Assembly (NCBI GenBank): GCA_963677495.2
Contig: CAXXOU010000004.1
Location: 832,001-896,000, forward strand
Reading direction: 5' to 3'
From: Candidatus Cloacimonadales bacterium
GTDB lineage: Bacteria; Cloacimonadota; Cloacimonadia; Cloacimonadales; JAFGVF01
DNA: 64,000 nucleotides
In this document: positions 8,284-50,272 of the stretch, piece after piece
Numbering within the stretch: the first letter of the stretch is position 1
Layout of the letters: each line of letters starts with the position of its first letter
Notes under the pieces: model-generated
Databases searched by the model: none
What the model was told of the DNA's origin: nothing
The model's input: only the letters and a program-made list of their open reading frames with translations
Position numbers and translations under genes: made by a program

Positions 8284-9118
8284 CGCTCTGAAAGAGTGAT
8301 TGTTTAATAGCCCCATGCGTGAGCTTGAGGTTGAAATTCGTTATAATGATTAGCCCTGTAGGGGCGTAAGAACTATTTGTTTGTGATATTACGCACCTAT
8401 ATAGTTAATTCTGCTCCCATGCATCTCTCTACTCTCAGCAGTAATCAGTGATTTCAAACTGACTTTAACTTGGTGATAGGTTGGTTAATTCTTAGCAATT
8501 AGGCCAGGAATAGGCCAAGTGTTTGCCAAGGGTTTACCAAGTGTTTCGCAGGAATTACTGCCGAGATATAAAGGAGATAAAAGAGAAGATGTAATTCTTG
8601 GGTTGGCAAGTTGTCATTAGCTCGAGTCCATTCGATTGAAAGGAGTTCGACTCTATGCGTTCTTTACAGCTTTCGCTTTGCATATGGCTATTTGAACTTA
8701 TACCTCTTCGAGGTTGCATATGTAACAACGTACTGCGACTCTCCTGAGTTGCTGTGACGACGAAGTCGGCAAATTCCACTGACGGGAGATAAATATATAA
8801 TAGTTAACCGGGAGGATTCCAGATTTCCAGTTGACTTCCGGCAAAGTATTTGTTCCGTAGGGGCACAACAACTTGTGCCCTATTTAGCTGTTTATGTTTC
8901 TGGATAAATCCATATCTAAACGTATGTTGTGGATACACCTTAGGGCTTAAGTTGTTAAGCCCCTACAAAAATACTTATAACTCTTCAAGCTATGTGCAAG
9001 TGAGGACACTCGCACTACGTTTTAGCCCTATATGGGCTGAATATGAATAGCCCCGGGTTTTGTGAACCCGGGGTCAAGTACACCCAAAAGACCTTTCGAA
9101 CCCTGAAGGGGTTCAACA
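8284..9118. repeat. Mosaic of palindromic modules, locus 2 (includes a GTAG-REP doublet and an 11-bp phased array)
   Basis: 8284-8400 resembles 9024-9118 in layout; 8469-8552 phased CTTGG/CCAAG; 8730-8783 ~ 31926-31979; 8857-8966 inverted REP pair; 8988-9021 ~ 32060-32093. Confidence 0.8.
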
Positions 9119-12392: not shown

Positions 12393-12819
12393 CAAAACGC
12401 AGTCATCCCACTGTTTTCCCACTGTGCACGCACTGTGCACCCAGTGAAACAGTGGGTTGGCAGTGCCTTCACAGTGCGTGCACAGTGCAAACACAGTGCG
12501 TTGATGGATAGTGCAGTAAAAGAGAGTAAAAAGGGAATAAAATGTAGCTAAGTTATTGGTAATGGCACTGCGTATGATATTCTGAAGCAGTCACCTGTAC
12601 GACTGAAAGGAGTTTGGGGAATTGCGACTTCGAAGTACACGAATATAACTGATACGCATTTCCCCAAGCTCGAAAACTCGCACTGGTGACTGCTCCTGTT
12701 GTGGGGCGAGGATGAAAACTTATCAAAAGAGGTATAGTAGTGTATTTTAGGAAGTCCGTTGCCCTATCAGGCCGACAAACTCCCTGAAATGCGGTAAGTT
12801 ATTGCGAAATGCAAAGTAT
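12393..12819. repeat. Composite repeat, locus 3 (CASTG phased array + long hairpin element + conserved B module)
   Basis: 12393-12575 nearly identical to 60276-60458 and to the reverse complement of 31690-31872; 12583-12698 ~ reverse complement of 31424-31532; 12745-12805 ~ reverse complement of 3312-3375. Confidence 0.9.
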
Positions 12820-20078: not shown

Positions 20079-20250
20079 TTACATTCCTTATCTAGTATTG
20101 TAGGAATGATTCAGCATTAAGTTGTTGAGTCAAGAAATATCCTTAAAGGAGTTCTTCAGAGTGAAACTTGTGAGTGAAAAAGGACTTCTTGGAAATTAAT
20201 TAATATCACTAGCAAATCGAAGAACTGGCAATAATTCAAGAGACATCTTA

Positions 20251-20335
20251 CCACGGATTGACCACAGGTAAACTACGCCTAAACCAAGGGAGCCGTGGTC
20301 AACCCTTGGTCAATCCGTGGTTTACCCGTGGTCAA
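20251..20335. repeat. 11-bp phased inverted CCACGG/CCGTGG array
   Basis: Motifs at 20251, 20262, 20273, 20284 | 20293, 20304, 20315, 20326; homologous to 41504-41585. Confidence 0.85.
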
Positions 20336-20383
20336 GTATTTGGGATGTATGAAAACAAGGAAGAGGTGTTTGATTAAAAAAGT

Positions 20384-30852: not shown

Positions 30853-30995
30853 TTGTTTACTCCGTATTTCAGAAATTTTTTTTATTCAACTATTTGAGTT
30901 GCATAAATATGTCAATGTCATTTTGATTTTTCTGCTTTCTGTGACGGGTGAAGTTTAATTGCCAGCAGACACTTTTTTACTGTTTCGGTTATTAA

Positions 30996-32690
30996 GGAGT
31001 TTGTCAGTCTGTCCGACGATATTCATTTCGTTTCACTTCATTCGGCTTGGCAGTGTGACAATGGTCAGGGATTTGCATTCGCAAATCCGAGAACCATTCT
31101 GTCATCCCGATTGAGTGAGGATACGAACGAGTAGAGGGACCTCTCCGATAGCTTTAGTCTCCCCGCTAAAGAAGAGCTTATTTGCCTTCCGAAAGTTGCT
31201 CAAAAAAAATACAAACCACGAAAAGCACAAAAAGCACGAAAGGGGGATTAGCTTCATTATTTTTCGTGTATTTAGTGCTTTTCGTGGTTAGATATAAAAC
31301 AAAAATTTGAATACCTTAAAGATACGTCAATACCTCAAATGTTAACCCACTAAAGCCATCCGAGCGCCCCATCGACTCCGTTCATTTCGTTTCACTTCAT
31401 TCACTCCGCTCAGGGTGACATGTCAGGAGCAGTCACCAGTGCGAGTTTACGAGCTTGGGGAAATGCGGAAAAGATATGTTCTCCGGTACGCATTTCCCCG
31501 AACTCCCGATGGTCGTAATGGTGACTGCTTCAAAATACATGCACAGTGCGTTTTGCAATGACTTACCGAATTTCAGGGAGTTTGTCTGCCTGATAAGGCA
31601 ACGGACTTCCTAAAATGCACTTCGAAGTCACTTTCCCTAACTTTTCGTTCTCGCCCCACACTTCGTTGCGGAGCAAGTCCAAAAGAGATATACACAGTGC
31701 CTTTTGCAATCACTTAGCTACATTTCATGCCCTTTTCACTCCCTTTCACTGCTCTATCCATCAACGCACTGCATCTGCACTGTGCACGCACTGTGAAGGC
31801 ACTGCCAACCCACTGTTTCACTGGGTGCACAGTGCGTGCACAGTGGGAAAACAGTGGGATAACTGCGTTTTGGTGGATGGTTTAGTTCAATAGAGCATCA
31901 GTATCGAAGATACATGAATGACAATGTACTGCGATTCTCCTGAATTGCTGTGGCGACGAAGTCGGCAGTTACCACTGACTGTAATTTGGTTTTAAAACGC
32001 TAAAATGTGTCTCAATTGCTTTGCAAACACGATTGGTTTCCCGAAGATAGCTCTAAGCGAGCTATGTGCAAGTGGGGACACTTGCACTACGTTACACGCT
32101 CCCATTCAATAAAGCTATGACAAAGATTACATAGTTATCCACAACTTGTGACTAACTTACTGCTTTGAGTAAGAGAGAAGTAAGAGTCCAGTAAGTGTGA
32201 AGTAAGAGATAAGTAAGAATTGAATGGGGGTAATCGAAGGGACATAGCATGCTATAATCTATTGAGTAATTAAAATATACCGGATTTCTCATTTTGAATC
32301 ATACATTTTTCATCTTGCATTTAATCCCGATTCTCCCACGAGTAATAAAGACATGAAGATAATATCCATCCCATATCCAACTAATAAGATTCCTATATGT
32401 TCATATAGTTTTCATATAAGAGTCATATAGGGATCATATAGGAATTATGCAGTTGTTGCTCCAGTGCCTAACGTGGGAGAAGGGGGATAAATCGAGCATT
32501 AAACTATAAAATATAATAAGAAAAATGGTTAACGGATGCTCCCCAGAACCACCAGATTCATCTGGTGGCTGAATGCACTAACACACACTATCTTAACCCC
32601 ACTCTCCCGATTCTGCAGGAATCGGGAGGGTGGGGAGTTTGGGTGTAATCTCCTGCCCCTATTTGAAAAAAGGGGTTCTGGGGAAGCTAA
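30996..32690. repeat. Longest mosaic of palindromic modules, locus 5
   Basis: Contains copies of modules found at loci 1, 2, 3 and 8, a 9-bp CACGA inverted array (31214-31289), 11-bp arrays (31767-31856, 32134-32217, 32361-32440) and hairpins at 32550-32690. Confidence 0.85.
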
Positions 32691-32968
32691 TTAATGATTA
32701 TGTATTATCTTCTGGTGTTGTAACAAGATTATGATTGACATGATAAAAATAGATATTCAAATCAGTTATCGCTTGGAAAAGAGGTGTATAATCTCGAGCT
32801 CTTGAACATCGTGCAACATGTTGTACTGTCTCAATCCATGAGTTGAATGGGATCGTGATTGAACCTATGGATGTTTCTCGCAATTAAATTTTTTATAGAA
32901 TCCTTGTTATTATTCATTGACATGCATTATACTGAATATTTTTATTGAAAAAAATATTGGAGATAAAA

Positions 32969-33991
32969 ATGAATAGGAATACTTTAAGTCTTTATCCTAT
33001 CGATTTCCCATTTGAAACACTTGTATCTAGAATTGAAGCAAATCCTCCCAAACTTATATTGGATCCAGATTTTCAAAGAAAATACAAATGGGATAATGAT
33101 GGTTTCGAGAGATCAAGTAAGTTTATTGAATCTTGCTTAATGAGAATTCCATTACCTGCTTGTTATTTTGCAGAAAATGAAGAAAGCAATCATTTAGTTA
33201 TTGATGGGGTTCAGAGATTAACAACAATTCAAAGATTCTTTAATGATGAATTTGCATTAGAAGGTCTAACTTTCTATAATCATTTAAATGGCATGAAATT
33301 TTCAGAGCTTGGAGATTTAAAAAATGAGCTAGAGACAACTACAATTCGCTGTGTTGTCTTGAGAAAAGAGAATGACAAAGCCTTGATTAGAGAGATTTTC
33401 GCCAGATTGAATCAAGGAACAGTTAAATTATCAGATCAAGAAATTAGACATGCAATATACTCAGGTCCTTTTGATGAATTACTCACAGATATTGCATCAC
33501 ACACTTTTATACAAGCATTTAGAAATAATGATCAAAAAGAAGACAGGTCTGATGAGGAGCTTGTACTAAGATTCTTTGCTTTAGAATCAGATCTTGAATC
33601 ATATGATGGGAAACTATCAAAGTTGCTTGATGATTTTATGCAGGACCATCAAGACATAAGTAGGGAGGATGCACAAGAACTAGCAAATAAGTTCAAAACA
33701 ACCCTAAATAAATGTATGAGGACATTTGATGAACCCTTTACAAATGCAAATTTAGAAAAGAATAAGCGAAAAGGTGTTGTATACTATGATCTACTTATGT
33801 GGAGCTTTAGCAAGTTACCTGATGAGATAATTGACTCTAATAAAAATGAAATAATTACTGCATATTCTAACTTATGTGAAAATGGCGACTTTCAAAAAAA
33901 CATGCTAGGAGGATTACAAAAAAAATCTTCTATCATTAAAAGAAGAAAGTTATGGACTGCTGAGTTAAGGGGGGTTGGAATTGAAATCTAA
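32969..33991 (+). CDS. DUF262 (ParB/Srx-like, GmrS-like) domain protein
   Basis: PDFQRKYKW, FIES.LMRIPLP, VIDGVQRLTT, IFARLNQG..LS.QEIR motifs; ATG 32969 behind GGAG. Confidence 0.88.
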   Translation: MNRNTLSLYPIDFPFETLVSRIEANPPKLILDPDFQRKYKWDNDGFERSSKFIESCLMRIPLPACYFAENEESNHLVIDGVQRLTTIQRFFNDEFALEGLTFYNHLNGMKFSELGDLKNELETTTIRCVVLRKENDKALIREIFARLNQGTVKLSDQEIRHAIYSGPFDELLTDIASHTFIQAFRNNDQKEDRSDEELVLRFFALESDLESYDGKLSKLLDDFMQDHQDISREDAQELANKFKTTLNKCMRTFDEPFTNANLEKNKRKGVVYYDLLMWSFSKLPDEIIDSNKNEIITAYSNLCENGDFQKNMLGGLQKKSSIIKRRKLWTAELRGVGIEI

Positions 33992-34601
33992 CTCACTAGT
34001 AAAACTTGAGATTAAAATTGATCATTTGGCCAGTAAGATAAGTGATTTTGAACATTTACTCCTTGAACCGAATCCTAACACTTTTATAATAGAAAATGCG
34101 AATTTTTTGACTAGATCGTTTTTGATCAGTCTTTGTGGATATTTGGAAGTATATCTTAAAGACATTATTGAGGAATATCTTGTAAAAGTTAATGATCTTG
34201 TTTCGAGTATTAAAGTTCCAATCAATTTGATTCGTTGGTCCATTGAGAATAAACCAAAGGCAAACTCAAAGATGAACTCATTACTTGATCCTAAAAAAAC
34301 TAAGTTTGAAGATTTACAGTTAAGAATAACTAAGAACGATTTAGACCAATTCATATCTGGAAATCCTTTCAGAACTAAAGATCTTCTCATTATGTTTGGA
34401 ATTGATTTAGAATCATATGATTTTTTTTCAAATATGAAAGTTCAGATTAACTCCTTTGTATTCACAAGAAACAATATTCTACACTATGATGATGATGCTT
34501 CCAGTTTGACAACTGGTGATATAATGGAAGCAAGTTCATTGTTTCTTAATTATGCCTTACAAATAGATGATCTGATAACAAATAAGATAAATCAAGTCTA
34601 G
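33975..34601 (+). CDS. HEPN-domain protein (MAE_28990/RiboL-PSP-HEPN-like), putative RNase
   Basis: N-terminal 'LISLCGYLE.Y' helix and RNNILH (Rx4H) motif; overlaps the DUF262 gene. Confidence 0.7.
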   Translation: MELKSNSLVKLEIKIDHLASKISDFEHLLLEPNPNTFIIENANFLTRSFLISLCGYLEVYLKDIIEEYLVKVNDLVSSIKVPINLIRWSIENKPKANSKMNSLLDPKKTKFEDLQLRITKNDLDQFISGNPFRTKDLLIMFGIDLESYDFFSNMKVQINSFVFTRNNILHYDDDASSLTTGDIMEASSLFLNYALQIDDLITNKINQV

Positions 34602-49932: not shown

Positions 49933-49994
49933 AATACTTAAAACTAATTTATTATTAAGCTCTAATCGATGCTTCATTAGTCTTTCATAATTCA

Positions 49995-50272
49995 CGGGAC
50001 ACACTCGGGACTTTTCCCGAGAAATTCCCTTGTAAGTCGCATAAAACTCCCAAATAATCCCCGCGAGTTGTGATAGGTTAGTGAAAGTGTGGATTGCATC
50101 AGCTGCGAAGATACACCAGCCACTCGACCGCTTTATGGAGTTTGTCAGATATGAAGCTTGCGGAGCGGGAACGGACTTCATCAAAAGCACACAGCATAAC
50201 CTACATCAATACGGGTTTTGTGCTAATTCAGAAAGTGCCACATACAAACCGACTCAGTCGGTTAAATCCATA
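49995..50272. repeat. Mosaic of palindromic modules, locus 7
   Basis: Phased CGGGA/TCCCG array 49995-50063; 50091-50130 ~ 3487-3525; 50137-50190 ~ 3335-3378; 50244-50272 ~ 3455-3483. Confidence 0.75.

Follow-up and report, generated by a model that had tools for sequence, protein, structure and literature searches.

Phased inverted 11-bp arrays form dispersed repeat families in a Cloacimonadota genome, most with a copy upstream of a DUF6266-related paralog

What kind of element is an intergenic sequence in which a short motif recurs every 11 bp, jumps in phase at a centre and then continues as its own reverse complement, and why do several such sites, built on different motifs, lie close together in one bacterial genome? 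We addressed this question for a stretch of 64,000 nucleotides (hereafter the window; C4:832001-896000) from the 3.41-Mb, four-contig genome of a Candidatus Cloacimonadales bacterium (G000). The original prediction, made from the letters of the window, described nine intergenic sites of a single architecture. We recovered all nine as members of element families, and all nine lie between genes; they are listed here with one further feature.

8434..8565, + strand: family C element (CTTGG/CCAAG) with terminal inverted repeat; 31 copies in the genome
12385..12575, + strand: family A element, copy 1, with three CACTG cores, then five CAGTG cores, then a conserved 3′ tail that closes with one more CACTG core; 67 copies genome-wide
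20249..20336, + strand: family B element (CCACGG/CCGTGG); 40 copies in the genome
31690..31880, − strand: family A element, copy 3, inverted
32101..32231, + strand: family D element (CTTACT/AGTAAG) with terminal inverted repeat; 12 copies in the genome
32135..32143, + strand: perfect TTATCCACA inside the D element, half of a dyad common to families D, G, N and S
32367..32467, + strand: family E element (TATATG/CATATA); 8 copies in the genome
41502..41589, + strand: family B element, copy 2
49992..50073, + strand: family F element (CGGGA/TCCCG); 24 copies in the genome
60268..60458, + strand: family A element, copy 2

The copies at 12.4 and 60.3 kb differ at 3 of 118 nt, exactly as had been claimed. 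In the CACTG/CAGTG array at 12.4 kb, position 12442 reads CAGTG and not CACTG; the left arm consists of three exact CACTG cores, and the centre is an 8-bp step. Eight of the other cores listed at the outset are degenerate (8480, 8491, 8504, 8548, 50026, 50037, 50048 and 50059), and the inverted two-arm architecture, which describes the sites of the window, does not carry over to families G and H, whose members have mainly one arm genome-wide. The cluster of A, D and E elements is followed (32945-34601) by a gene for a GmrSD N-terminal domain and a RiboL-PSP-HEPN gene, which likely constitute a defence pair.

The strictness of the period is evident across the whole genome. When a cluster was defined as one 5-mer occurring four times at a fixed lag, we counted 144 clusters at lag 11, none at lags 10, 12 or 13, and none at lag 11 in each of three block shuffles, which excludes a chance origin of the 11-bp arrays and bears out the enrichment over shuffled controls on which the original prediction hinged. 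Spacings between exact cores are multiples of 11 in 148/148 cases for family B, 105/106 for C, 57/57 for H and 22/22 for D, with values of 390/463 for A, 34/47 for F and 62/92 for G; in family A, 58 of the remaining spacings correspond to the 8-bp centre. Using 20 seed models chosen by hand from the array listings, we matched 322 non-overlapping elements genome-wide, with a median spacing of 9.6 kb and lengths of about 110-190 bp, the ends being specific to each family. In addition to the families of the window, these comprise G (37 copies), H (29), N (24), I (10) and rarer families, three of which are single copies. The estimate of at least six core motifs can thus be raised to about 15-20 element families genome-wide, and what had been overlooked is that the arrays are dispersed repeat families with tens of copies each. 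Replication-strand bias was absent in seven of eight families (family A, p 0.05).

The copies of a family resemble one another along their whole length. Gap-free alignment is possible for 65 of the 67 family A copies, at a mean identity of 90%, and homology spans about −55 to +135 relative to the centre, ending sharply on the right and diffusely on the left. Core columns are 99% conserved and spacer columns 91%. The earlier impression that spacers vary while spacing is kept is correct between the units of one copy, but between copies the spacers at equivalent positions are well kept, indicating that whole elements were copied. Compared with a MITE, terminal inverted repeats are found in the consensus sequences of families C, D, E and N, and family A has its diffuse left end. 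Hairpin repeats of other families lie directly against the right-hand end in 42/67 copies of family A, as seen in the window at 30960-31700 and 12575-12695.

Inverted arms could also mean that the elements act as RNA or as single-stranded hairpins, comparable to the repeat RNA of type III toxin-antitoxin systems or to terminator-like REP hairpins. Consistent with this, family A folds strongly as a single strand (z −8.1), B and D fold moderately, and family A is oriented, with its 5′ side toward the gene start in 51/66 cases (p 0.0007). However, C and F fold weakly and E no better than shuffles, the elements have no match in Rfam and do not favour convergent gaps, and the period is that of the DNA helical repeat. 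For family A, selection for a hairpin is ruled out by 19 compensatory versus 362 broken cells in the arm pairing, together with arm swaps between copies, which leave the folding energy unchanged (−35.6 vs −35.9 kcal/mol). We regard an RNA or hairpin role as very improbable, and the absence of compensatory change in family A backs the initial reading of the arrays as double-stranded DNA sites.

Families D, G, N and S additionally contain an inverted dyad of TTATCCACA, which we take to be the DnaA-box consensus, and 97 of the 154 perfect boxes in G000 lie within 60 bp of an element. It is possible that these dyads serve as dispersed DnaA titration sites. Two boxes also lie just downstream of a dnaA-like gene (read as dnaA from its N-terminus), and a five-box cluster far from this gene is a candidate origin; the cluster and the gene are at C1:766198-766411 and C1:868295-869743.

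If each core is a protein-binding site, a family of related proteins might accompany the arrays, and neighbour clustering revealed 22 full paralogs of a protein of about 150 aa in G000. None is encoded in the window, and the partner genes of the window's families all lie outside it, that of family A at C4:1447755-1448204. In a tree of 94 paralog rows, a clade of 59 rows (support 93/83, unstarred) has a lag-11 score of at least 21 within 600 bp upstream in 36 rows, compared with 1 of the 35 other rows; a few array-bearing loci fall outside the clade, for example L198 and L205. Specifically, 14 of the 15 G000 paralogs in this array clade have an element no more than 1.3 kb upstream, at distances of about 200 to 1230 bp, and none has one downstream, as against 0/7 with an upstream element in the other, acidic clade. 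The pI is at least 7.7 in 13 of the 14 element-linked paralogs and 4.5-5.8 in the seven others. These 14 linked elements represent 11 families, where 8.1 would be expected from abundance (p 0.035), and the A-linked gene at C4:1447755 shares an upstream A array with its 90% identical ortholog in the congener G001. For 13 of 27 labelled rows, the closest paralog from another genome bears an identical element label, against a null of 1.5; a grouped version of the test gave 21/27 and was set aside because the groups were drawn after the tree was seen. Label agreement alone is insufficient for co-evolution, since kin share loci and descent of the locus can explain it.

The linkage extends to most array types, so that a gene family was found where the original prediction would place one, except for families H, K, O and P, which have no linked paralog in G000; family Q occurs only beside a truncated paralog. 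Within 600 bp upstream, elements are found at 10/22 paralogs and at 238/523 long-gap genes, that is, without enrichment. Neighbours of the G000 paralogs vary, with no recurring small partner ORF, and the loci lie on chromosome-size contigs in surroundings rich in other repeats and near RAYT genes, which by eye form two clusters of 7 and 5 RAYT-like members in this genome. Six paralog pairs stand back to back (C1:774903-782343, C3:291424-297691, C4:777582-783015, C4:1040941-1041881, C4:1465701-1474719 and C4:1498361-1504070), and in five of them a full gene of the array clade is paired with one of the acidic clade, with 4.5-8 kb of cargo in between. By eye, we also noticed a TATA-rich motif ending in AGAGG about 100-300 bp upstream of most G000 paralogs of both clades, possibly a shared promoter.

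The same arrangement recurs in other genomes. Of 151 genomes from the phylum, 97 encode members of the 150-aa family, and at a lag-11 score of at least 23 arrays were found upstream of 15/36 loci in genus g1 and 13/50 in other genera, with 0/36 and 0/50 downstream and 0-1 at lags 10, 12 and 13. Among 48 further Cloacimonadota loci most have no array, many of them belonging to array-less clades. Arbitrary blocks of 120-140 kb contained five arrays in G013, four in G014 and two in G009, none in G024 and G031, both of which lack the family, and none in 120 kb of G004, where members are present. All 11 block arrays share, as matched by eye, their motif with an array upstream of a local paralog. 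The G014 motif (26 matches) is confined to 1 of 41 genomes, and one G013 motif occurs in 2 of 41 (65 and 16 overlapping matches), genomes that each contain the linked paralog clade. Because cores differ from genome to genome, the resemblance of some of them to restriction sites, raised in the original prediction, is not needed as an explanation.

The 150-aa family, with 370 representatives at an E-value of 0.001 or better and nearest Atlas clusters mostly from Cloacimonadota, has no Pfam match among 143 members, and sequence searches of the PDB, Foldseek against the PDB, and viral, plasmid and phage searches returned nothing significant. The predicted model (pLDDT 95) consists of three short strands followed by helices. 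In the VIA structure comparison its best hit was the TraM N-terminal domain (Z 4.0, rmsd 2.4, 49 aligned), below the tool's trust level; several ribbon-helix-helix proteins at Z 2.6-4.0 were too weak to use, and the prediction of a two-copy complex scored 0.03. With no solved fold matched, structure adds no support for DNA binding by the paralogs, and the recombinase, ParB-like or HU-like partner once envisaged is not recognisable as such in sequence or structure searches.

We had presumed a likeness of the family to DUF6266 (PF19781) and later tested it. A DUF6266-bearing Atlas cluster at 0.85 served as a lead only; hhalign then gave a probability of 85% (E 7e-6, 117 columns), and the DUF6266 profile scored 39, compared with at most 16 in 21 controls. 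The predicted models share the same N-terminal order of three strands and three helices, and differ in that DUF6266 is modelled with a C-terminal fibronectin type III domain where the 150-aa protein ends in a short helical part. The 150-aa family is thus very probably a remote homolog that shares the N-terminal domain of DUF6266, although the Cloacimonadota proteins fall below Pfam detection. Both groups have upstream phased arrays with dispersed copies: among 26 DUF6266-type loci from three Bacteroidota genomes reached by pattern scan, a lag-11 array lies upstream in 7, a rate that is not general because the genomes were chosen for having an array, with lag-10 arrays at 2, none downstream, and 19 loci having no lag-11 array. 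Two DUF6266-linked motifs recur at dispersed sites (14 and 23 overlapping matches), each confined to its own genome, and that of G159 is limited to its two DUF6266-type genes. The original prediction of paralogous protein-site pairs therefore finds genomic support in the 22-member family with its clade-specific upstream arrays, in other genomes of the phylum, and at DUF6266 genes in Bacteroidota.

Element positions turn over between close relatives. Family A occurs in 3/3 congeners and 0/37 other relatives, and a comparison of syntenic gaps over 800 kb with the congener G001 (3.1 Mb) found that 0/7 element-bearing gaps, among 298, were filled in both genomes. The proposed comparison of empty and filled sites therefore shows unshared positions, but the alignments are too diverged to fix insertion ends. 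Elements in G001 are commoner at synteny breaks (8/55 vs 0/34 adjacent pairs, p 0.02; 16/49 vs 1/94 in a looser count), an association that we treat as a lead only, as long gaps favour both elements and breaks. Over 400 kb, G001 and G000 are separated by about 50 synteny breaks, 33 of them beside a G000 element, at a median protein identity of 83%. Flanking direct repeats of 4.4 vs 4.8 nt give no excess indicative of target-site duplication (37/67 A copies, with the left end estimated). IS families are present in G000.

We favour, with a probability of roughly 55%, a reading in which the arrays are scattered members of about 15-20 element families (110-190 bp), most of which have a member upstream of a 150-aa paralog related to DUF6266, and in which every basic paralog has a core of its own as binding site on double-stranded DNA. 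Since most array types have one copy just upstream of a gene of the protein family, each protein probably docks on a type of its own. By analogy to ParR on parC and to BldC, a basic paralog, as protomer or dimer, would dock on its core once per helical turn and polymerise head to tail along each arm, such that the two arms would face one another on either side of the centre. At a paralog gene, the upstream copy may then be an autoregulatory operator through which the protein represses its own gene, the gene-less copies would provide tens of docking sites per paralog (about one element per 10 kb overall), and docking at these dispersed copies could organise or bridge the chromosome. The copies themselves likely spread by copying in trans or by recombination between elements.

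Two other readings assign the paralogs a different part. They might mobilise the elements, as RAYT does for REPINs, recognising the phased cores and copying or recombining the element by an undescribed chemistry. One gene beside one of many dispersed copies, positions unshared between congeners, the defined ends and terminal inverted repeats of several families and the excess of G001 elements at synteny breaks would all fit this, as would the conservation of Y72 (99%) and R33 (94%) in the family. Yet the protein is only 150 aa long, matches no nuclease or recombinase in Pfam or by fold and has no HUH motif (H-x-H in 3/143 sequences), the DUF6266 alignment contains no invariant Tyr, and family A gives no signal of target-site duplication; we therefore find a mobiliser unlikely. 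We rate as somewhat less likely again that another factor binds the arrays, either a small Xis- or BldC-like protein or, for the subset with box dyads, DnaA, and that paralogs sitting in repeat-rich hot spots merely inherited a neighbouring element. The lack of enrichment over long-gap genes in G000, the abundance of other repeats and RAYT genes around the paralogs, the concentration of TTATCCACA boxes near elements and the existence of arrays with no detected partner are compatible with such a binder. It is harder to reconcile with the upstream-only position where arrays are sparse, with the agreement of dispersed and paralog-linked motifs in 11/11 cases and with the recurrence of the link in a second phylum; moreover, no small ORF recurs beside the G000 paralogs, and the three HTH_17 matches in G000 are too few for about 15 cores.

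Binding of each basic paralog to its own core, our preferred reading, has partial precedents. REPINs (bioRxiv 10.1101/2021.07.10.451892) are likewise dispersed intergenic inverted-repeat families with a cognate gene nearby, lineage-restricted in sequence and turning over in position; unlike the RAYT partnership, however, the linked protein here lacks an HUH motif or transposase fold, occurs as up to 15 paralogs per genome, and faces arms that are phased 11-bp arrays rather than short REP hairpins, with pairing unconserved in family A. The parC site of plasmid R1 (PMC2241845) contains two sets of up to five 11-bp units each, to which ParR binds cooperatively and autoregulates, and so resembles our arrays in having two sets of 11-bp units upstream of the gene of a (here presumed) binder. 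Its units are direct and form one plasmid locus with ParM, whereas those studied here are inverted and chromosomal, with tens of gene-less copies and many specificities, and no partition ATPase is seen beside the G000 paralogs. The plasmid collection held no match to the 150-aa family, whose ribbon-helix-helix likeness stays below the trust level. The arrays and their paralogs are thus neither a REPIN-RAYT nor a parC/ParR system. BldC, a 68-aa protein with a MerR-like winged helix that forms head-to-tail oligomers on direct repeats (PMC5859096), can serve as a model of how a small protein builds a directional filament along phased repeats whose number varies, but the 150-aa protein shows no MerR-like winged-helix fold.

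A literature search, in a library with few subscription papers, found no description of phased inverted 11-bp array families and no paper on DUF6266; one excerpt mentions tandem repeats of 6-11 bp in general only (PMC4060949). If the preferred reading is true, it would provide a first function for the multi-copy DUF6266 family, account for a large class of intergenic sequence in two phyla, and add to REPIN-RAYT a second kind of partnership between a cognate gene and dispersed repeats, one without an HUH enzyme. With so many naturally occurring paralog-motif pairs built on one 150-aa scaffold, a recognition code would be open to direct test, and the pairs could serve as a source of orthogonal DNA-binding parts. 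We speculate further, in a tentative and on balance doubtful extension, that an undescribed, multi-channel address system of the chromosome is common to Cloacimonadota and Bacteroidota, in which a DNA-binding domain of new fold has diversified into numerous paralogs that each read a separate 5-7 bp core once per helical turn on elements copied to tens of sites; at least 15 orthogonal protein-DNA filament codes per genome would bridge sites, shape the nucleoid, favour rearrangement, and hold about 60% of perfect DnaA boxes via the dyads of four families.

Similar periodicities appear elsewhere. The acidobacteriotal genome G161 has many 11-bp CCAAG arrays and no match to the 150-aa family or DUF6266, and records L217-L296 from Terriglobia and Ca. 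Angelobacter contain many 11-bp CCCAAG arrays, often several per genome. The TAACTGA heptamers of Beggiatoaceae and Bacteroidetes (PMC4679880) are also abundant intergenic short-period repeats of unknown function, but in the excerpted account they have a period of 7, are almost all direct, mostly abut start codons and come with no described cognate paralog family. Other short-period intergenic arrays accompany the 11-bp ones in our own data, at lag 7 in G000, where they are a separate signal of 24 clusters, and in G013, at lag 8 in G014, and at lag 9 in the window (31213-31241).
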